Assembly: GCA_027487835.1 (NCBI GenBank)
Contig: JAIYCU010000028.1
Coordinates: forward strand, 22,930-86,929
DNA: 64,000 nucleotides
Reading direction: 5' to 3'
Source: Bacteroidota bacterium
Lineage (GTDB): Bacteria > Bacteroidota > Bacteroidia > UKL13-3
The notes below the pieces were generated by a model. That model searched no databases, was not told the DNA's origin, and was given only the letters and a program-made list of their open reading frames with translations. Positions 4,701-50,948 of this stretch are shown here, in pieces. The translations under genes were made by a program, and so were the position numbers. The first letter of the stretch is position 1; the number at the start of each line of letters is the position of its first letter.

Positions 4701-7114
4701 TTCATTAATAAAGTGAAGGTGCCATTGTTGTTATCATAAGCCCCTAAACCATCTGGTATGCCGACCATTTTATATCCACCAATTGCCTCTCCAACAGTTA
4801 GCACAGAAGCCAAACTTACTTGAGCGTTGCTAGCAGTTACATAATTTGTTACCGCCAAATTTCTAGTAACTGTTATCGTATATATTTTCACAGTTACGCC
4901 ATCTTCTGCTGTTACTTTTACTTCAATAGTATTGCTTCCGACATTTAATAAAAGCATCCCAGAAATTGTTTCATTTTCTAAATTTCCATATGCACCACCA
5001 TTGATTCTAACTTGAATGGTTGCACTGTCTTGTGATAAAGTTGGTGTAACTTTAAATCCTTTAAAGGCATTAGGTACAGTGCAGGTATAGCTTTGGTTCG
5101 AACCTAAAAAATTAGGGGAAAGATTTAAGCTATTAGGCACTAAATTTACTAGGTTTGCATCATTAGAAAAAACCCTAGTGATGTTCAAAATATAGGTTCT
5201 GGTGCTAATTCCGTCTTCAGCAGTTACACGTAAATAAAAGGTATTTAAACCATTTATTAATGCAAAAGTATCAGAAGGTTCACCACTAACAATTGGGTCA
5301 AAACTGATATTATTTCTGCTAATCTCAATTAAGGCATTGGTGTCGGAAATGGTTGGGGTTATGAGAACACTAGTTGCCATTAGCTCAGCAGCATAAGTAG
5401 AAGTTAAGGGAGAAAAACTTGGAGAAATAGCTCCTGTATTTAGCGACAAGTTATTTAAATTGGCATTTGCAGAAGGAATAGCAAAGTAAGCTGCGTGATT
5501 GTTTTCAATGGTTTGAATTTCAGTATTTGAATAGATATGCGTAAACAAAAGCAACTCATTCAATTTACCCGTATAAAAAACTTGGCCATTCGCAGCCACT
5601 TGGTTGGCGCCAATGGCCAAACTGCTCACAGCGGTTCTTGTTCCTGTATTTAAAGTAGCATTTGCCTCCAATGCATTGCGTGATGCGAAAATATTCGCAG
5701 CACCATTGCTTGAGTTTCTAGTAAAGGAATGGATTTTTGAGGCGGCATTATTACAGATAACATTTCCTGCTGTAGAAACATCACCCAAACCAGCACCGCC
5801 ATTCCCAGCTGTAAATTTGTTGTTGTAAATTCCATAGGCAAAATCGCTCGTGGTTCCGTTTTGGGTAGCACCCAGCAAACCATTCATGTTATGCCATGAA
5901 GCAGCGGCACCACTAGAATTATTTACACTCGTTGCATTATAAACCACGGTTCCACTTAAGTTAGTATTGAAACTACTGGTAGTTATGGTGAGAAACTTAT
6001 TTCCAGAAAACTGAAGACTGGGTTTAAGGTTATTTAAAACAATATCTCCTGCGCTAATAGCAATTGGTTGATTGCTTGTATTTGCTTGAAAGGCATTTCT
6101 ATTGCTATTCCCACTTTGATCATACCAAATTGCCACAGTTGCTGTGGTACTGCCCGAAACCAAAGAATTTAACTCATTACTTGTTACAGGAGAAATAGCA
6201 GTATCATAAGTTCCCAAAACAGCAGAAATATTTGAATTAAGCGAAAAATCTTTTGTTACACTATCAGGATATACATCATAAAAATTACCACCAATGTTAA
6301 CTCTTAATAAGGGGCCAGTATAAGTGGATGAAAGTAACCTTAGCGCATAAGACCCTTGTGGGAGTGAAGTTTCTGGTAAGCCAACAAAATTTAAGGCATT
6401 TAATCTTACTACAGAGATTGAATAGATTTTGATGGTTGTTCCATTTTGCGCAGTTACCTTAACTTGTATGTTATTGGTACCATAATTAAGTGCCAAAGCA
6501 CTTGAAGGGTTTCCGCTATTTACGGTGGCATAAGCCCCATTGTTTACTCTAACCTCAATGCTTGCATTGGCTTGGGCCTTTGTGGGTGTAACCGTAATGC
6601 TGCCAGTTGAACTCACAACATTAGTAACATAACTTAGCGTATTTCTGCCAAAACTTGGAGCAAGTGCACCAGAACTTATGGTTAAAGTATTTAAATCTGC
6701 ATTGGCAGATTGTATTGTATAGCAGAATGAACCTCTGTTCATTAAAGTATCACCACCGTTGCTTGAACCCGTTAAAACAGTGCCGCCCCCGCCCGAGGCC
6801 GTGATTGTCCAGGTAGGTGTGTTGTCATTATTGGTTCCGTTTGTGCTTACCCAAAAAGTGAAGGGTCCATTGTTAGGAGCAGTACCTGAAGCTACATAAG
6901 TAGATGAAGTTGAGTTTGGACCCATGGTATGAACCACATTACCCGCTAAATTTCTAATTTCACAATAGGTTTCATCATAATAGCTTGATCCACTAAGAGA
7001 AATTGAGTAGGTAGTTGTACCGCATTGGGCAAAGGCAGTATTTCCTTGCCATTGGATTACAAAAAGAAAGGCAATAACTAAGCTTTTTAAGGTATTTTTC
7101 AAAGATGGTTTCAT
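1781..7114 (-). CDS. giant T9SS-secreted multidomain protein: signal peptide, 3 cadherin-like beta-sandwich domains, LamG/ConA-like lectin domain, beta-propeller phosphatase-like (PhoX/DUF839-like) module, Ig-like region, T9SS type-A C-terminal sorting domain
   Basis: N-terminal signal peptide. Cadherin-like beta-sandwich repeats (TLTISSGALAPSF..., LSLNTGAISPSFSP..., NLVPNSLNLSPNF...). LamG-like GKLNELLLF motif. About 430-aa module at aa 772-1200 paralogous to a module in the 7285..13998 gene. C-terminal YPNPSHDNFTLS...GLYFVNIKIG matches the T9SS type-A tail. Confidence 0.85.
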   Translation of the reverse strand: MKPSLKNTLKSLVIAFLFVIQWQGNTAFAQCGTTTYSISLSGSSYYDETYCEIRNLAGNVVHTMGPNSTSSTYVASGTAPNNGPFTFWVSTNGTNNDNTPTWTITASGGGGTVLTGSSNGGDTLMNRGSFCYTIQSANADLNTLTISSGALAPSFGRNTLSYVTNVVSSTGSITVTPTKAQANASIEVRVNNGAYATVNSGNPSSALALNYGTNNIQVKVTAQNGTTIKIYSISVVRLNALNFVGLPETSLPQGSYALRLLSSTYTGPLLRVNIGGNFYDVYPDSVTKDFSLNSNISAVLGTYDTAISPVTSNELNSLVSGSTTATVAIWYDQSGNSNRNAFQANTSNQPIAISAGDIVLNNLKPSLQFSGNKFLTITTSSFNTNLSGTVVYNATSVNNSSGAAASWHNMNGLLGATQNGTTSDFAYGIYNNKFTAGNGGAGLGDVSTAGNVICNNAASKIHSFTRNSSNGAANIFASRNALEANATLNTGTRTAVSSLAIGANQVAANGQVFYTGKLNELLLFTHIYSNTEIQTIENNHAAYFAIPSANANLNNLSLNTGAISPSFSPLTSTYAAELMATSVLITPTISDTNALIEISRNNISFDPIVSGEPSDTFALINGLNTFYLRVTAEDGISTRTYILNITRVFSNDANLVNLVPNSLNLSPNFLGSNQSYTCTVPNAFKGFKVTPTLSQDSATIQVRINGGAYGNLENETISGMLLLNVGSNTIEVKVTAEDGVTVKIYTITVTRNLAVTNYVTASNAQVSLASVLTVGEAIGGYKMVGIPDGLGAYDNNNGTFTLLMNHKLGSAQGITRAHGSTGAFVSKWIINKSDLTIESGSDLIQKVKLWNSATQSYDLYDSASPMPMGFGKLSSADLPVISALYNSSSTFGTLDRILLSGEENGAEGRAFAHVLTGDNADTTVELPFLGKLNWENVVVCPSRGQRTIVAGLDNEMGGQVYFYSGNKIDSGSAIEKAGLTNGKLFAVKVTGLSQELNGSFPAPNTNFTMVDLGIVKDSTGAGIELVSNAQGVTKFLQPEDGAWDPKTPADFYFVTSNTFSNPSRLYRLRFTNIRNPEFGGTITAVLDGTEGIKMMDNIVIDTLGRIIIQENAGNNAHLSKTWVYNIVTDQLLQLAEHDSTRFRIGGTNFLTQEEEASGVIDMRNILGSGKFLFVSQAHYATTSELVEGGQLLAMTISPISLNPLVINQDSIEIGTASSTTALSLTCANVPNADYYNWTVPTGVLIVSGQGTRTLAVRFTDPVKFVSTIAKPKYIYCNAQSSVSNSFSPRDSVRISKTLPGFRINYLISNPNYNLGNPSWTSTVGVGSNGKIVNVTNTLGLKVGDIIRLKSGAGIIGVSNTVDSIVNATQFRLKNNMTSNVSAGSVLNAYIVPQNKFEAYTSAPGASNIATFVTVSTTAGLSEGMLLSVVSGTGLLREGTVVAKIVNNQNFVLSQSPTINLSNNAVIRAIPVLTNACPIKVNSGISSEFDFTVEATPVRNLGYQYILPKGSRISRIGDSAIAGYDTARITGLKVVSSTATSIGVVFDSLFTSGFISVKPFNNAGFASTFRVPIKTDKAVVYKVTSNGAAIKNTRVRYTASVTNGSELISYKWTIPATNVTAHSGTALGNVITTTTDTLSLTFGNLFRSGTLRVEAINNCGTGSAKTFVLNGTTTLNKSGQNMELEEMVETDKLPMNVLEIYPNPSHDNFTLSINTLEKEAPAQVTVINIMGQVMEEFTLSNKGGLIFTNHKHQMPAGLYFVNIKIGSEIYTEKIMVSQ

Positions 7115-35541: not shown

Positions 35542-36726
35542 TTAAAATCTTGAAAACAGGGCTCTTAGAAAACATATAAAAGTATTATTAGTTAGTGATA
35601 AAATAAAAAGTCCAATAGCAAACACTGGAGTCAACCAAACTAAGAAACGAATAATGTTTAAATAGCTTTTTTGCTTACTGTGTAGATTATTAATTTTGGT
35701 AAATGTTGTTGTGAAATCATCACCAAGAATTCCAATTTTCTTATCATCAACAGAGTTTTCAAATCTATCAATATCATCTTTCACAAAGTCTATTGCAGAA
35801 AATTGATTACGCAGAAGAACTTCAAGTAAAACACTAAAAACAAATGCACTTAAAACCAAGGCGAAATTGAAATAGATTTTTTCGCCAGTAAGGTCAAATT
35901 GTCCAATTATTAATAAAAAAGCTGCTGGTATTGCCACAAGTTTTGTTTGTGCATCATTAATTACTGCTTGGATTTTTTTGCTGTATTCAATTATCTCCTT
36001 GTCAATTTCTGATTTAAATTTTTGATAAGAATACTTTTCTAAATATAAACTGTGGCTTTTATGGTAATTTAATGTAAGGTCTGAGAAGTTGGTAACCAAA
36101 AAATTGAATCTGTTTTTAGGTTCAATTATTTTTGATAGTGAAGCTATCAATTCATTTGTAAAAATAATTCGTCTCTCCTCCCTATCTGCTGAATCTTGAA
36201 TATGGCTAATTAAACTGTCTAGTTCTTTTATTTCAATTAAATCTTTGGCTGAATAATCCGTAGTTAGTATTAATTGCTTTGCTTGAAAAAAAACAATTTC
36301 ATTGCCCTTTTGATAATCTGAAATACTTCTTAAAAAAGAAATAAGTTTTGTAAATGCTGTATAATTTTGGATTTGAACTGGTTGAACTTGTTGGGTTGAA
36401 ACGTAATTCAGTGAGTTTACAAAGTATTTATTTTGAATATTAGATTGAGATGAGAAATTTATTAAATCTTCGAATGATTCAAAATACTTTTCATCTCCAA
36501 GTTGGTTGGAATATAGTCTTACTTTAATTCTATCGTTAATTGCAATTTGGTCAACTAGTTTATTTCGATTTAGAACAATTACAAAATTCTCAATGCAATT
36601 TGCGGCTGACAAACTTTTTAGTTTTTCTATTTCATCAAGATTAGGCACAAAAAAGCCGACTATTTCATTTCCTGAAATAGTAACTTCTTCAAGTCTTTGT
36701 CTTATCTGAATAAAATCGTTAAGCAT
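35542..36726 (-). CDS. hypothetical protein with C-terminal 3-TM region (candidate membrane effector; partner of the NdpA-like gene)
   Basis: 394 aa. The soluble N-terminal ~270 aa is charged and helical. TM helices are LVAIPAAFLLIIGQF, FALVLSAFVFSVLLEVLL and FLVWLTPVFAIGLFILSL. A 3-nt gap separates it from the upstream gene. Confidence 0.6.
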   Translation of the reverse strand: MLNDFIQIRQRLEEVTISGNEIVGFFVPNLDEIEKLKSLSAANCIENFVIVLNRNKLVDQIAINDRIKVRLYSNQLGDEKYFESFEDLINFSSQSNIQNKYFVNSLNYVSTQQVQPVQIQNYTAFTKLISFLRSISDYQKGNEIVFFQAKQLILTTDYSAKDLIEIKELDSLISHIQDSADREERRIIFTNELIASLSKIIEPKNRFNFLVTNFSDLTLNYHKSHSLYLEKYSYQKFKSEIDKEIIEYSKKIQAVINDAQTKLVAIPAAFLLIIGQFDLTGEKIYFNFALVLSAFVFSVLLEVLLRNQFSAIDFVKDDIDRFENSVDDKKIGILGDDFTTTFTKINNLHSKQKSYLNIIRFLVWLTPVFAIGLFILSLTNNTFICFLRALFSRF

Positions 36727-36729
36727 TGA

Positions 36730-37524
36730 TTATTCGGGGTCTTCTTCATTCGCAAATTGTCTTCTTAAATCATCAGGCAAATTAGTTATTCGTAATTCAT
36801 TTGTCTGTTGGTTGTAAAAAATACTTTCATTTACTAAGCCACTATCAAATTCAATTGTTAGTTTTTTGCTTCGATAAACGTAAAATTTCAAAGTCTTTAG
36901 TGTTTTATTGTGGCCTTTAATAAGAGAGCTTACTCTATAATCTTCACTCGCTGCAAATTCTTGAAACATGTCAGGCTCATCAGCACTTATCATTGATGAT
37001 ATGTGATGCAATGAAATATCCTCTTTTCTTCTAGTTTGAGCATAGCAATAATTCAGAACTTGATTTCTTAAATTTTCTTCTTCTTGAGTATCTAATTCTA
37101 GTTGTGGCAAATAATCGAGAAAAGCTCTTTTTAAGGATTCTGATGATTCTTTTGCAGATGTTTGGTCTGTACATCCAATAAATCTTTTAAAATAATTAGA
37201 AACATCTTTTCTTCCTCTTGCGAATGACAAATACGTTTCTTCATTATTGTCCCAACGAGTAACATTAACTGAATTGGCAACATCTAATTTGTCAATATCA
37301 AGACTGAATATTTCTTCAATACTCAAATTGTCATTTATATTGTATTGCTTTTTGTTGTTCAGCATTACAGTCATTACAAATTCTTCATTTTGTAGTGTAT
37401 AATGAGCAAAAACTACATAACCTCCTGTGGCTTGCGGAACTGCATTAATTACACCCAATAAATGATTCATTGCAGAAGCTGTGAAATCTAAAAACTGCTG
37501 TTCAACAAAGTAGTTTCTTAACAT
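36730..37524 (-). CDS. nucleoid-associated protein NdpA/YejK (NA37) family homolog
   Basis: [34 protein letters not shown] aligns with NdpA [34 protein letters not shown] aligns with YLTFLKGR. C-terminal [13 protein letters not shown] aligns with TIKGTPPNLRDQL. Confidence 0.6.
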   Translation of the reverse strand: [264 protein letters not shown]

Positions 37525-37736
37525 TGTTTGAAAAGGAAAAGTTACTGCATTCGGGTCAAAGATTCCATAGTTTGGATTTGACTTTTTGTAATAAACTTGC
37601 TTTATGTTTGTTACAAATTCTGTTTCTCTTTCACCGACTGGAAGTAGGTTTTCACGTAATGTTATTGTTGCATTACCTTGTGATTCTTTGTCCAGCCTGT
37701 GAACTATTATTGAGTGTAATTCTATATTATAAATTT

Positions 37737-38081
37737 TTACAATTCCCCTTTAAAAGCCTTGTCCAATAAACTTGGAATTAGTTTGGTTAATTCCTGTTCG
37801 GTTTGTTTGTGATGTTCTTTAACTGCATTTGTTTTATTGAGTAGTTCAACAAATTCTCTTTGCAATTCAATTGAAGGAACTGGAACTAATATTTTCATCA
37901 ACTTGTCTAAGCCCAATGTTTTGTTTCTTCCTATCACAATAATTTTTCCGTCAGTGAAAGTCCGCTGTTCAAGTATTAAATCGTCTGACCATTGGCTATC
38001 ATACAGCTTGGGCAACACTTCCTTTCGGCAAGTGTCCGCTTCGCTATCGTGATTGTCAATATGTATAGTTTTATCACTCAT
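37737..38081 (-). pseudogene. chimeric relic ORF: HsdR N-terminal domain fused to HsdS C-terminal conserved tail (type I R-M remnant)
   Basis: N-terminal SEADTCRKEVLPKLYDSQWSDDLILEQRTFTDGKIIVIGR matches HsdR_N (SEAxTRxxLIDPxLxxxGW...). C-terminal PVPSIELQREFVELLNKT...LIPSLLDKAFKGEL is the canonical HsdS C-terminus. Confidence 0.55.
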
Positions 38082-38145
38082 TTACTCGTCATAATATAGT
38101 TTGTCAAAATACCTTTTTTCTCGATGTATTGGCTCGGCTTTTTAA

Positions 38146-42604: not shown

Positions 42605-44995
42605 TCATAATTGAACTTCAATTAAGTTAAGAGTGTCTTGTATTAGGTTGTCCAATTCAGGTTCAGTAATAGTATTAGGGTTAATACCTAACATTGTGTA
42701 ATCTGGAGTTGGGTCACCATGATGTGGTTTCCAGGAAACTCCATTAATTAAATGAAGTGTAGATATTATTGTTGTCCTGTTTGCATTGTCCCTAAATACA
42801 ACTGGCAATGTATCTAAAAATGTAATTAATCTTCCAAATGTTTGTATTCCTGTCATAGTTCGAACTTCCTTGTAGAATTTGAACCGTAAATGTGCTTCAA
42901 GAACATTTCTCAACCAACCTAAAACAGTGTCTTTAATTGCATGGTTTGGGTTACTTCTAAAAGCCTCCAATGCTTCAATATGTTTAAAGTATTCAATTTT
43001 TACCAATTCTTCTAAATCACATAGTTCAAGTTTAGATGCTTTGGCTACGAAATCTTCCTTTATACGAAGTGTGCATTTTAAGGTTGCTCCAATGTCTTTG
43101 CCTATTTCATGAAGAAAATATTCATTGTGGCTTAAAACAACCACCTGCTTTAGTTGTTGAAATAATGTTCTAATAATTCCAATTGTATAGGTTCTTCTAT
43201 TAGTATCTAAACTTGATAAAGGGTCATCAAAAATTAAAATTTTATCTTGGCGGTTTGGATCAATGTCAAGTTTGGATAAAAAGAACGCTAAAGCAATTGT
43301 GCTTTTATCTCCCTCGCTCAAACATTCCTTGGCATTAAATGGTTGATTTGGGACAAATGATATGTCCTTGCCGTCTATTGTCAATTTGTAAGCGATTTTG
43401 CTTTGTGTTGCTCTTCCTGCTGGAGCAACATGAACAACATCCTCTATTCTAAAAAGTGTCTTGAAAACATTGCCCAAATAATGGTTGATACGTGTCTGGT
43501 AGCTATTGAAAAAAGTTGCTGCTGTGGTTTGCTGTTGTTGCGATAAAGCTGTGTATGCTGTTTCTAAACCTCTAAGTGTTTGTTTCTCGGCAGACAATTG
43601 AGTGCAAAGCGTAACAATGGGAGTTTCATATCTCTTTTTAATTCTTTTTAGTCTATCAACCGCAAGCTGTGCATTTGCAGCAGTCTGAATACCTGCACGA
43701 AAAGTTGTAATTGCAGCATTGTAAGTTGTAATGCTTTGATTGTAGCTTTCAATGTTTGTGTTAATGGTCTGTCCAGAAGACAGAAAAACAGTAGCGGTGG
43801 CGGTAGCCACCGCTACTGTAGGATTTTGTATTTTTTGTTGGAGTGAATCAATTAACCTTTGAAACTCTGCTCTTAAAACAGTTTCGTCCGCAATGATGTT
43901 AAAAATTGGTGGATGAACTGTATTTGGCAAGTGCGTAGCCCATAACGTTACTCTCCCTGTATTTGTCTGATTGATATTGTTTATCGCTTGTATGGCAGCG
44001 TCCAAATTGAAGTTTTGAAGCGAAGTCAAATGTGATTGTAGTCGTAGAACTAAAGCGTTAAAGTCAGCATTAAATTTAGTGATATAGGCGTTTAGAATTT
44101 CAACATTGCCATCAATAGTCTGCATACAAAATGGACAAGAAATTGTGGGTTCATTTGCTGCTTGTTTTCTCTCCACATATGCAAATCCTCTTTGCAGCCA
44201 ATTTTCAGGTCCGTCAAGTCCGTTGTCTGTCAAGTCTTGACAATGATTTGAAAACAAAGTTTCCAAAGCTGCATTTTGAATTGCTTGTGATGTTGTCTGT
44301 AAGTCTGTGATAAGAGAAGTGAAATCAATACCCGATATTATTCGGGTGAGAGCAGTAAGTTGTTGTAATGTTTGAATTATTGTGTTTGCATTCGCACTCG
44401 CTAATGCAGCCTCCGCCGCTGTAATTTGTTGGTCAATTCCGCTAGATTGTGTTACAGGAATAGCAAGAAATGAAGTAATTAAGTCAGCGGTCAAACTGTT
44501 TCCCACTTGCTGAATTAATTGTTGTTCAATATTTGTTATTGATTGTTTTGATATGACTTTAGCAGCTTTGTTTTGTTCAATTTGATTTTGAATTGCAATT
44601 CCTTGTGCACCGATAACAAATTGATGAAGTTGCTTTTTATGTTCATCATTAAAGTCAAACCCTGAATAGATATTGTCGTTGACAAAATGAATGTCAAAAA
44701 TCTCAATATTATCAAAAGGAGTTGTCCAACCAGCAGCCCTTAAGGTGTGAAATGTATTCGGTGTCCCTGTTTGAGTTATTTGTGCTGCTTGTGCTGCTAT
44801 ATGGTTTGTAGAAATTCTACTTCTAACGATTTCAGGTTTGTTGGTTGTCAAGGAACGAAACACTGAAGTTAGTGTGGTTTTACCACCTCCATTGTTGCCA
44901 TAAATTAAGGTCAGCTTTTGAAAATTAATCTGTCCAGCAGCAGTGTAGTTGCGGAATTTTCCAATGGAAGTAAGTCGTTCAACTTTGTTTATCAT
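42605..44995 (-). CDS. RloC/PrrC-like anticodon-nuclease-type ABC ATPase (AAA_13-like): split ABC head with long coiled-coil insert, CxxC zinc-hook, C-terminal HEPN-like domain
   Basis: Walker A GNNGGGKTT at the N-terminus. About 450-aa Gln/Ala-rich coiled-coil with SCPFC. ABC signature LSEGDKSTIALAFFL, Walker B ILIFDDP, H-loop VLSHN. C-terminal roughly 190 aa carry an Rx5H match to the HEPN Rx4-6H motif (LRNVLEAH). Confidence 0.7.
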   Translation of the reverse strand: MINKVERLTSIGKFRNYTAAGQINFQKLTLIYGNNGGGKTTLTSVFRSLTTNKPEIVRSRISTNHIAAQAAQITQTGTPNTFHTLRAAGWTTPFDNIEIFDIHFVNDNIYSGFDFNDEHKKQLHQFVIGAQGIAIQNQIEQNKAAKVISKQSITNIEQQLIQQVGNSLTADLITSFLAIPVTQSSGIDQQITAAEAALASANANTIIQTLQQLTALTRIISGIDFTSLITDLQTTSQAIQNAALETLFSNHCQDLTDNGLDGPENWLQRGFAYVERKQAANEPTISCPFCMQTIDGNVEILNAYITKFNADFNALVLRLQSHLTSLQNFNLDAAIQAINNINQTNTGRVTLWATHLPNTVHPPIFNIIADETVLRAEFQRLIDSLQQKIQNPTVAVATATATVFLSSGQTINTNIESYNQSITTYNAAITTFRAGIQTAANAQLAVDRLKRIKKRYETPIVTLCTQLSAEKQTLRGLETAYTALSQQQQTTAATFFNSYQTRINHYLGNVFKTLFRIEDVVHVAPAGRATQSKIAYKLTIDGKDISFVPNQPFNAKECLSEGDKSTIALAFFLSKLDIDPNRQDKILIFDDPLSSLDTNRRTYTIGIIRTLFQQLKQVVVLSHNEYFLHEIGKDIGATLKCTLRIKEDFVAKASKLELCDLEELVKIEYFKHIEALEAFRSNPNHAIKDTVLGWLRNVLEAHLRFKFYKEVRTMTGIQTFGRLITFLDTLPVVFRDNANRTTIISTLHLINGVSWKPHHGDPTPDYTMLGINPNTITEPELDNLIQDTLNLIEVQL

Positions 44996-45211: not shown

Positions 45212-46393
45212 TCACTTTATAAATTCAGATTTTTCAAGATTTGGATAAGTCTCAATGAATTCCTCAAACGTGCCTTTAAAGGTTTCAAGTTGACCAATTT
45301 GCTTTTGGGAGAAAATTTGATTTACTTTTTCCCAATGAGCATCTGATGATGTTGGGTCTACTACTTTGATTATAGGTTTATTTCTATTCCAATTTAAAGC
45401 ATGTTGTAATAAATTTAAAAATGCTAGGTCTGATTGAGGAAATGAATATCCGATTATAATAATTTCTTGTGCTTCAATTAGTGATTTGAATGTTCCATCC
45501 CAAAGTTCTTTAGCTGTAGAATTTTCGTTCTTACCTAAAATTGGGGCAACTAAATCATGTTCAAGTTTTGCTCCACAAATGCCACATTTAAATCGGTCAA
45601 ATAAATTTCTTATTTCTTCTGTACTATGTTTGTCATCGTAATACATTGAGTAACTATTCACAATTTTGTAGTTATGGATAGTCTTACAGTTTGGACATTT
45701 AAACCAATCAAACGACCCATGTAATTTAATCAATTCATGGTGTTTACTGTAAGTCCATTTATATTGTTCATTACGGATTAAATGAGCTCCGTCACTAAAT
45801 GTATAGATTGGTACTATATAATGTGGCACAACATTAAAATTGCTTTCTACGCCAACTACACCCCAGATGTGGTCAAAATATTCGTCATCAAGTTTACAGT
45901 CATAGTTAAATGATATAGTACTTAATACCGGTATGTTATTGTCGTTAATTGTTTTGAACCATAGTCTATCAAAGAAATTTTTGTATAATTCTTTTGAGTT
46001 GTCTAAAAAAATTGTGTTATCAATGAATTTAGAAGTTTTGTTGTCAATGGCAGAAAAGATAATTTTTGTAAGCGTTTTAAATACTTTAGTTAAAGTGTCT
46101 TGGTTCAGAAGATAATTGTCAACATGAATTATAGAATTGTTTCGTATAAAATAATCAAGTTGTCCCAAGAGATTTTCATAATCAATCCACTCTTTTTCCA
46201 AGTCTTTTCCTTGCAATTCCAAAACAATTGATTTTACTATTGTAAATACTTCCTTAAAATGACTTGATTTACATTCCTTGATAAATTCAATTATAGATGT
46301 TGGAAGCTGATTAAGAGTTGGAATTCCATAAGCAAAAGAAGCTCCTGCCCCGAAGACACAAGCTGTTCTCTTTATATTTTTATGGTCTGTCAT
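45212..46393 (-). CDS. SIR2-like (SIR2_2/DSR-type) defense-associated protein with C-terminal Cys-rich zinc-ribbon
   Basis: N-terminal ACVFGAGASFAYGIP matches the SIR2_2 hallmark (hFhGAGhS..GhP). C-terminal CPNCK...CGICG. Defense-island context. Confidence 0.65.
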   Translation of the reverse strand: MTDHKNIKRTACVFGAGASFAYGIPTLNQLPTSIIEFIKECKSSHFKEVFTIVKSIVLELQGKDLEKEWIDYENLLGQLDYFIRNNSIIHVDNYLLNQDTLTKVFKTLTKIIFSAIDNKTSKFIDNTIFLDNSKELYKNFFDRLWFKTINDNNIPVLSTISFNYDCKLDDEYFDHIWGVVGVESNFNVVPHYIVPIYTFSDGAHLIRNEQYKWTYSKHHELIKLHGSFDWFKCPNCKTIHNYKIVNSYSMYYDDKHSTEEIRNLFDRFKCGICGAKLEHDLVAPILGKNENSTAKELWDGTFKSLIEAQEIIIIGYSFPQSDLAFLNLLQHALNWNRNKPIIKVVDPTSSDAHWEKVNQIFSQKQIGQLETFKGTFEEFIETYPNLEKSEFIK

Positions 46394-49337: not shown

Positions 49338-50948
49338 TTAATACTTAATTACCTTCACCACCTTTGCCGCGGCAAAAGCATCTTGAACCTTGAGAAAGTA
49401 ACAACCATTGTGGAGGTGGTTTAAATCAATGGCATTGTCTTGGGCTGAAAGCAAACCCGCTGCCACCTTATTGCCATTGCTCTGAAACAATTCATAGGAA
49501 ATTTCTGTGGCAGGCCAATTTTCAAAGGTAAGTTGAACCTTGCCACTGGTAGGATTTGGATATAGGTTGAAGTTAGGCTGCACACCTTCTCCCTCGTTCC
49601 CAATTTTAGCCAGGTATTGTGCATACATATACCCACAATCCAAAGTTTTATTGCCCACTTCTATTTTAAAGTTAAAAGAACTGCTTACATACAAGTTGTT
49701 CCATTGGTCTTCGAATATCCATACCGCATATGGCACATTTGGAAAGAGATAAGAATCGATTTCTTTTCCATTTTGTGCTTCATAGCTTACCCGGCAAAGG
49801 CCATAATAGTGATGGTACTCTAGGCTAATGGAATCCCATATATCTGTTAGCCTACCATACACCACAGGGTTATCCTCTGAATTTGTCATAATCTTAGTCA
49901 TGTAAAATTCAGTGGTATCCCTTCTATATCTTGGGGTGGGTTTTATCCAGCTTACCTTTCCTTGGCTGTTTAATTTTGAAACAAAGTAAGCGTAGCTTGA
50001 AAAATTATACAGCAGACTGTCATTTAAGAAAGTTTCACCTTCTGAGGAGCCTAATAAATAGGCGTCTCCCTTTGTATCAAAACATAAATCATGCACATAA
50101 TTAAAATCTTTACCACTTAAAATACTGGTGTATTGAGATTGCCCATTTGCCTGCAATTTGAGGATAGAAAAATCTATGCCCCCTTTGGTAATAAAGGTAT
50201 CTCCCTCCCAAGTAAGTGCTTCTTGAAATTGCCCAAAGGCAAATAAATCGCCGGTAGGCGTAACTTTTATTTTAGGACAAAAAACCATCCCTTGCAAGGT
50301 GCGCACCCAAAGCAATTGGCCCTGTGTATTAAATTTTGAAATAAAAAATTTAGACCCACCTGTTTTAGCACCATACAAAACCGTATCCCCTATGGACAAA
50401 GGATACTCAAAAGAGCCGGCTAAATAGCAGTTAGAAGAATCATCCAATAAAACTTGATAGGCATAATTGCCGCTAGCACCCCCAATTGCTTTTGCCCATT
50501 GCGCTTTGCCATTGGCACTATATTTTGTTAGAAAAATATCTGTAGCGCCACCATTGGCAGTTAGGGTTATGTTATCAAAAGAAAGGGAATTGTAAAAAAA
50601 GCCAGTTATAAAAAGTTCTCCTTGTGCATTGGCGCAAATACCCTGACTTTGCAGCGCAGCGCCATAGCTGTTAGAGGAAGTTGCCGCCCACACCAATTGC
50701 CCTTTGGTATCATACTTTGCAGCAAAAACATTTTCTAGGCCATTTGAAGACAAGCTTACCCCATCAATCGTTTTCCAAAGCTGGTGGTAAACACCCCCAG
50801 CATAACTATTGCCGGCCTTATCTACATAAAAAGAACCTGATTGAGCACCCCAAGTTTGTTTTAGCCAACTGGTTTGTTGCGCTTTTACCACTTTTGAGGC
50901 AACAAAGGCAAGGTGCAAAAAAAACAAAAAATGAGCAGCTGTTTTCAT
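49338..50948 (-). CDS. T9SS-secreted beta-propeller (SBBP-repeat-like) protein with type-A C-terminal sorting domain
   Basis: Signal peptide. Repeated G..Y..G...D..GN.YV.G blades. C-terminal LYPNPTSGKVQL...GCYFLKV T9SS tail. Confidence 0.75.
   Translation of the reverse strand: MKTAAHFLFFLHLAFVASKVVKAQQTSWLKQTWGAQSGSFYVDKAGNSYAGGVYHQLWKTIDGVSLSSNGLENVFAAKYDTKGQLVWAATSSNSYGAALQSQGICANAQGELFITGFFYNSLSFDNITLTANGGATDIFLTKYSANGKAQWAKAIGGASGNYAYQVLLDDSSNCYLAGSFEYPLSIGDTVLYGAKTGGSKFFISKFNTQGQLLWVRTLQGMVFCPKIKVTPTGDLFAFGQFQEALTWEGDTFITKGGIDFSILKLQANGQSQYTSILSGKDFNYVHDLCFDTKGDAYLLGSSEGETFLNDSLLYNFSSYAYFVSKLNSQGKVSWIKPTPRYRRDTTEFYMTKIMTNSEDNPVVYGRLTDIWDSISLEYHHYYGLCRVSYEAQNGKEIDSYLFPNVPYAVWIFEDQWNNLYVSSSFNFKIEVGNKTLDCGYMYAQYLAKIGNEGEGVQPNFNLYPNPTSGKVQLTFENWPATEISYELFQSNGNKVAAGLLSAQDNAIDLNHLHNGCYFLKVQDAFAAAKVVKVIKY

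Follow-up and report, generated by a model that had tools for sequence, protein, structure and literature searches.

The window, by which we mean the whole 64-kb stretch of Bacteroidota DNA that was analysed, carries on its minus strand a short open reading frame which joins the beginning of a type I restriction subunit gene (hsdR) to the end of a specificity subunit gene (hsdS). Downstream of this hsdR'-'hsdS (R'-'S) chimera lie a gene for a nucleoid-associated protein of the NA37/YejK kind and one for a protein with hydrophobic segments; upstream are found genes encoding a Mrr_cat-NACHT protein, an RloC/PrrC-like AAA_13 protein and a SIR2-like protein. The coordinates are collected in Table 1, together with the identifiers of related sequences. 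Still further upstream a 536-amino acid protein (49338-50948, minus strand) contains a Por_Secre_tail domain (type IX secretion sorting), in keeping with a host among the Bacteroidota. Rfam and tRNA scans of the 64-kb window returned nothing, so the window holds no integration site of the tRNA type.

Table 1. Features of the locus and identifiers of the related sequences
Feature	Position or identifiers	Strand	Evidence
hsdR'-'hsdS chimeric ORF, deletion scar, 114 codons	37737..38081	-	ORF listing and separate family matches of the halves
Unambiguously hsdR-derived codons 1-50	37933..38081	-	89.6% nt identity to L011 hsdR 5' end
Deletion junction, one copy of the 9-nt repeat AGGAAGAAA	37924..37932	-	three-way base alignment
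Unambiguously hsdS-derived 3' end, last ~62 codons and stop	37737..37923	-	L011 hsdS 3' end 92.9% nt, L012 90%
Kept hsd leader/promoter-proximal stretch, 52 nt upstream of ATG	38082..38133	-	homologous to L011 sequence upstream of hsdR
NA37/YejK-like nucleoid-associated protein gene, downstream partner 1	36730..37725	-	Pfam NA37 profile 1-325
394-aa protein, C-terminal hydrophobic (transmembrane-like) segments, partner 2	35542..36726	-	gene contexts, hydropathy analysis
Mrr_cat + NACHT (STAND NTPase) protein, 1028 aa	38146-41232	-	five homolog loci L013-L017
AAA_13 RloC/PrrC-like protein, 796 aa, CPFC motif	42605-44995	-	PADLOC PDC-S06 E=5e-70, weak PrrC E=4e-8
SIR2-like protein, 393 aa, after the AAA_13 gene	45212-46393	-	PADLOC SIR2/Aga_SIR2
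R'-'S chimeras	P0030, P0035, P0042, P0051, P0052, P0059, P0062-P0064, P0082-P0121 and others
Loci of R'-'S chimeras	L006, L018, L055, L058, L064, L073, L086
Extra-gene cassettes	L043, L056, L078/L085, L065, L060, L079, L091/L059, L096, L099

The chimeric reading frame and its junction

Searched separately against NCBIfam, PDB and PADLOC, the two halves of the ORF each matched the family predicted for them by the first-pass annotation. Residues 13-59 correspond to the N-terminus of HsdR, aligning with residues 25-73 of PDB 3h1t_A (E=6e-5) and with the NCBIfam EcoAI/FtnUII HsdR profile (positions 2-48, E=5e-6). Residues 60-114 correspond to the extreme C-terminus of HsdS (5ybb_D/3okg_A residues 340-398 of 398, E=2e-5), and 36 PADLOC Specificity_I models match this half (best E=4.5e-11), most of them running to or near the C-terminus of the profile. 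Pfam gave no hit on the ORF or on either half, HSDR_N and Methylase_S staying below threshold and nothing appearing even at E≤10, because the fragments are too short; likewise the 25 bits reached with the NCBIfam model NF046051 are far from its cutoff of 550, a homology at the fragment level only. The ORF is confirmed as a real in-frame HsdR-N::HsdS-C fusion. Its parts had been put at roughly 55 amino acids of HsdR and 50 of HsdS; the identities stand, and the sizes are corrected to 52 and about 62 codons, respectively.

Codons 1-50 represent the N-terminal third of the HsdR nuclease domain and share 94% amino acid identity with P0004 and P0005. The latter, the nearest relative of the N-terminal half, is carried on a 9-kb contig (L011) with hsdR, hsdM and hsdS in this order. 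The HsdS remainder corresponds to residues 322-385 of a 385-residue reference HsdS (P0077), and comprises the last part of the second target-recognition domain together with the conserved helix at the C-terminus.

A blastn comparison with L011 aligns the locus in two pieces. Window positions 38133..37924 match L011 85..295 (89.6%, E=4e-77), beginning 52 nt before the ATG, and positions 37932..37735 match L011 5046..5243 (92.9%, E=5e-82), stopping 2 nt after the stop codon; upstream of window position 38133 and of L011 position 85 the flanks differ. Matches of this strength cannot be put down to chance. The two alignments share nine nucleotides, AGGAAGAAA. The L011 hsdR copy is read as ATA GGA AGA AAA GCA (Ile-Gly-Arg-Lys-Ala) at codons 50-53, the hsdS copy as GCA GGA AGA AAC AAA (Ala-Gly-Arg-Asn-Lys) about 62 codons before the stop. 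Base-by-base inspection of the window reveals a single copy, with hsdR sequence 5' and hsdS sequence 3' of it. The same pair of repeats is present in L037, and in an intact cassette of the L011/L103 kind hsdR would continue past codon 53 with KARRKKAKRFDY....

Deletions between short direct repeats can arise independently of RecA, through slipped strands or through illegitimate recombination at microhomologies; lacI of E. coli provides the textbook example. The present locus has the same appearance, with one copy of the 9-mer at the window junction and both copies, ~4.76 kb apart, in L011. In L011 coordinates 4759 bp (~4.75 kb) are absent from the window; the length and content of the deleted segment are estimates, the parents being known through relatives at 77-93% identity instead of an intact allele in this strain itself, and some relatives have additional genes inside the operon. 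Short repeats are plentiful in the L011 cassette (34 direct-repeat pairs of 9 nt or longer with one copy in hsdR and one in hsdS, and 151 pairs overall), so that a hotspot need not be invoked. That the fusion was selected to be in frame was considered and rejected: the repeat has the same codon phase in both parents, which makes the open frame a by-product, and out-of-frame scars exist elsewhere.

The junction could also be an assembly artefact, or the product of recombination between two hsd cassettes instead of a deletion within one operon, the assembly being derived from a metagenome and the ends of hsd being conserved between cassettes. This we regard as exceedingly improbable. A stretch of 945 nt recurs without any difference on three more contigs from separate runs, and a fourth contig has the ORF unchanged; the 9-nt repeat is far below the k-mer length of the assembler; L011 is nearest for both halves, and their similar divergence from it (89.6% and 92.9%) fits a single parental cassette; and the continuity of the hsdS 3' end with the NA37-like gene is common to the relatives.

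Little of a restriction system is left. The nuclease core of HsdR_Vv requires Glu26, Asp77, Glu92 and Lys94, and the nuclease domain comprises ~140 residues (PMC2777439). One of the four residues is present in the ORF, E14 being the equivalent of Glu26; the hsdR part ends at codon 52, approximately HsdR_Vv residue 66, and the equivalents of Asp77, Glu92 and Lys94 lie beyond the break. About 40 of the ~140 nuclease-domain residues remain, without RecA-like or motor domains, which falls short of a complete PD-(D/E)xK core with an SF2 motor. In place of an HsdS with its target-recognition domain(s) and conserved regions there are the last ~62 residues only. No hsdM was found in the 64-kb window by tblastn with two HsdM proteins (none at E≤1), nor was any further hsdR or hsdS sequence. 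Judged from its domain content, the peptide should be unable to restrict, methylate or recognise DNA, and the strain would have lost one methylation specificity.

The ancestral cassette and its downstream gene pair

The ancestral arrangement was reached through homologs of the downstream NA37-like gene. A metagenome scan with the ORF itself recovered 80 hsd loci, 0 of which had the flanks of the window; the genomic contexts of identical proteins all belong to one population and are silent on the ancestral state; and the upstream NACHT-Mrr gene, when used as a synteny anchor, led to five homolog loci with no hsd or island gene within 10 kb. Through the NA37 homologs, the intact operon which the first-pass annotation had suggested should be sought at the syntenic position in relatives was located, hsdR-hsdM-hsdS being followed there directly by the same NA37-like gene and 394-aa gene (L103-L106, L100/L101). 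In L103 the genes ahead of NA37 are intact, with products of 796 (HsdR), 533 (HsdM) and 373 aa (HsdS); over L103-L105, L106 and L100/L101 the corresponding ranges are 796-801, 532-533 and 373-382 aa, with NA37 and the 394-aa gene following. The partner of the NA37-like gene in the relatives (392-394 aa) is directly downstream of the hsd operon and NA37, and in relatives and window alike ~12 nt separate the hsdS stop from the NA37 start.

From the 9-mer through the hsdS 3' end, NA37 and the 394-aa gene the window aligns contiguously with L103 9793..12163, and its hsdR part aligns separately with the 5' end of L103 hsdR (4910..5041). This contiguous match, together with the intact operon present there, indicates an ancestral unit hsdR-hsdM-hsdS-NA37-394aa and a deletion internal to it. 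The R-M-S order is found in all of the ~35 related loci having at least two hsd genes. Homology to the relatives ends at the edges of the cassette, and the outer flanks vary among genomes. The earlier proposal that a deletion took most of hsdR, hsdM and most of hsdS is borne out by the junction, read at base resolution, and by the parents, which in L011 and L103 are collinear and in the same orientation, with hsdR and hsdS parts ~4.75 kb apart.

We propose that an ancestral cassette, hsdR-hsdM-hsdS-(NA37-like gene)-(394-aa membrane protein gene), underwent one deletion of ~4.75 kb between the two 9-nt direct repeats. Lost with it were the remainder of hsdR, including three of the four nuclease catalytic residues and the entire helicase/motor, the complete hsdM gene, and whatever of hsdS precedes the end of its second target-recognition domain. 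Since the two repeats code for Gly-Arg in the same phase, the product is in frame by chance. The mechanism, as far as the scar alone can tell, may have been RecA-independent slipped-strand or microhomology-mediated deletion. Expression is possible, since the frame is open and the start codon is kept together with the 52 nt of conserved hsd leader, and a 114-aa peptide may still be made.

The parental system resembles the EcoAI/EcoEI family (type IB). The N-terminal half of the ORF matches the EcoAI/FtnUII HsdR model, and the relatives possess an HsdR containing EcoEI_R_C, an N6_Mtase HsdM and a Methylase_S HsdS in the order R-M-S. Unlike the systems of this family, the ORF has no PD-(D/E)xK core, motor, methyltransferase or target-recognition domain, and is a remnant rather than a member. 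It is, with high probability, the non-functional residue of a type I operon of the EcoAI family (type IB-like), left by one repeat-to-repeat deletion.

The gene immediately downstream shows a defect of its own. The NA37-like frame is open up to the stop codon of the scar, yet the called gene (36730-37524) specifies 264 aa versus ~331 aa in its homologs, which begin MELHS, and the NA37 profile is complete only if translation begins upstream of the called ATG. At 37725-37723 (minus strand) the window has ATA where L103, L106, L100 and P0217 (98% identity) have the ATG start, and this ATA is common to all four contigs of the population. Since none of the first ~67 codons is ATG, GTG or TTG, gene callers take an internal ATG (264 instead of 331 aa). 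The ATA may represent either the loss of the start codon or a rare non-canonical start; the former fits with decay of the entire cassette.

In the relatives the 394-aa gene always follows the NA37-like gene, and this two-gene module (NA37-like plus a 392-396-aa protein) is conserved across L100-L110. Its neighbours are hsd operons in the close lineage, a Mrr_cat/NA-iREase1 gene in L108 and other genes in L110. PADLOC v2 has no match for either protein, and the 394-aa protein has no Pfam family. Type II PANGU consists of a YejK-like nucleoid-associated sensor, Pag2A, and a transmembrane effector, Pag2B, and operons of this type have been reported to be linked to R-M systems (bioRxiv 10.64898/2026.04.06.716658). 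The window pair resembles it in architecture, being a conserved combination of an NA37/YejK-like protein and a protein with hydrophobic segments beside restriction genes; unlike type II PANGU, its sensor gene has ATA as start codon.

Chimeric scars in other genomes

In a search of 5.8 billion proteins the ORF had one full-length match, an identical sequence from the same population, and the other strong matches covered one half only. HMMER, run exhaustively against 1.84 billion representatives, returned 1591 matches with no close full-length relative; among the best 150 of these, about two dozen short proteins match both halves. A widespread family of 114-aa proteins, which would have spoken against a scar, is thus absent.

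All 216 proteins retrieved were compared with a full-length HsdR (P0204) and the reference HsdS (P0077), and 38 of them, in ~33 clusters, proved to have an HsdR N-terminus followed by an HsdS C-terminus. Their junctions are scattered, HsdR breaking off between residues ~31 and ~281 and HsdS re-entering between ~231 and ~368 (reference residues), and several fall on residues common to both parents (QAK, YL/LL, GR), the signature of microhomology. Inspection of the DNA shows scars of both sorts, in frame in L058 and L086, out of frame in L055, L073 and L064. The L006 chimera adjoins SecE and Spt5-NGN, an archaeal-type context, and has no hsdM nearby. The possibility that these proteins form a conserved family was discarded on account of the scattered junctions, the mixture of in-frame and out-of-frame scars and the want of any shared architecture; the recurrent R'-'S chimeras are independent scars.

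As a rival reading, the chimera might be a functional small protein. It could for example act through its HsdS C-terminal helix, binding the HsdM of another type I system and modulating or poisoning restriction, or could be a regulator. The ORF is intact, its leader and start codon have been kept, and R'-'S chimeras turn up repeatedly, in 30 or more sequence clusters. In one cluster from another lineage (P0064) an analogous chimera is an intact 152-aa ORF in four variants differing by up to 5%; its survival across variants means that persistence of such ORFs is not rare. We nonetheless consider a function very unlikely. The junctions follow no conserved architecture, out-of-frame scars stand alongside the in-frame ones, the exact protein occurs in one population only, and no other type I system was found in the window. 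The polarised substitutions of the window lineage number eight nonsynonymous to six synonymous, as opposed to 5:19 in intact relatives (Fisher p=0.035, on only 14 changes); this nonsynonymous excess suggests, on small numbers, relaxed constraint.

Erosion of the cassette is not peculiar to the window, members of the family being often found inactivated. hsdR is frameshifted in L011; in L100 it is broken into five ORFs and hsdS is shortened, the same locus being intact in L101 (two metagenomes); L005 has hsdS as two separate ORFs; in L024 hsdR is interrupted by an IS-like insertion behind residue ~95 of its product; and L052 has an R stub and, beyond a 0.9-kb foreign insert with a 221-aa ORF, an S tail.

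A partial hsdS with its conserved C-terminal region also brings to mind half-HsdS proteins and hsdS shufflons, and a half-size HsdS of 184 aa does occur in relatives (P0002, P0014). Half-HsdS proteins and shufflons, however, have a complete target-recognition domain, act with HsdM and are reversible by way of inverted repeats. The scar lacks a recognition domain, hsdM and inverted repeats alike, and its deletion is irreversible. As a separate observation, additional HsdS C-terminal tails of ~32 residues (reference 354-385) were seen downstream of hsdS, in different frames, at L099 10127-11720 and L068 12874-13340; these may be silent hsdS cassettes or remnants.

The upstream island and the meaning of the scar

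PrrC and RloC are classically linked to hsd loci. From this linkage the first-pass annotation had suggested that the RloC-containing island may have grown inside an hsd locus and then displaced it, in which case the two hsd ends would mark the limits of inserted or replacement DNA. The AAA_13 protein, with its weak similarity to PrrC, is encoded in the same island, 4.5 kb upstream of the scar, a 158-aa ORF and the 1028-aa NACHT gene lying between. Nor are foreign genes within such operons uncommon: intact cassettes often accommodate a single additional gene in the hsdR-hsdM or the hsdM-hsdS interval, and ~10 related cassettes carry unrelated genes in this way. The embedded genes encode YhcG/DUF1016, AbiEii, SLFN/AlbA_2-HATPase_c_4, RhuM-Fic, DUF559 and GIY-YIG proteins and a 23S_rRNA_IVP four-helix protein, and the R stub and S tail of L052 enclose an insert.

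The arrangement of the window is nevertheless different, and this origin of the island appears highly improbable. The remnants are fused directly at the 9-nt repeat with nothing between them, homology to the relatives stops at the cassette edges, and none of the genes embedded in the relatives' cassettes is of the AAA_13 type. An ACNase gene inside or adjoining an hsd operon is not what is found here, the AAA_13 gene being neither in nor next to the hsd remnant and unlinked to hsd in the relatives examined. None of the five NACHT homolog loci has an hsd or other island gene within 10 kb; none of the 80 hsd loci from the metagenome scan has a close NACHT, RloC-like or NA37 homolog; and among ~90 related hsd loci there is no AAA_13/RloC-like or NACHT gene within 10 kb. 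The notion of displacement by an RloC island was accordingly abandoned. What accompanies hsd as a conserved partner here is neither RloC nor PrrC but the NA37-like pair downstream.

The NACHT homologs, 52-85% identical, come from Algoriphagus, Sphingobacteriales, Mucilaginibacter, Paludibacteraceae and a Bacteriovorax MAG, and their loci (L013-L017) have no neighbours in common with the window. The Mrr_cat-NACHT gene looks like a horizontally mobile single-gene defence module. The AAA_13 and SIR2-like genes are further defence modules of the island, unlinked to the hsd scar in relatives. The island is a mosaic of independent modules, of which one has decayed; it most probably did not grow inside this hsd locus.

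Decay of R-M systems by deletion between short repeats is well known, and in biological terms the scar is ordinary gene decay, a defence system having been lost by deletion; it opens no long-standing question. In the literature searched we found no account treating R'-'S chimeric scars as a class. The locus offers a case of the erasure of a type I R-M operon at base resolution, with both parental repeats visible in a relative. It also carries a warning for annotation. Dozens of R'-'S chimeras in public data go under the names "type I restriction enzyme R subunit", "S subunit" or "hypothetical protein"; such mislabelling would inflate counts of R-M genes.

It is very unlikely that the R'-'S chimeras, which recur in dozens of lineages and once in an archaeal-type context, are more than debris. 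Loss of EcoAI-family cassettes through short repeats might be a common and selectable route to the "off" state, in-frame peptides with the HsdS assembly helix could interfere with resident type I enzymes, or hsdRMS and the NA37-like/membrane pair might be a co-dependent unit of five genes. Were the last true, loss of the R-M core would free the sensor gene from selection, which would explain its change from ATG to ATA. On the preferred reading, that of a non-functional deletion remnant, the strain is probably without one of the methylation/restriction specificities of its relatives, and the adjacent NAP-sensor module may also be decaying.
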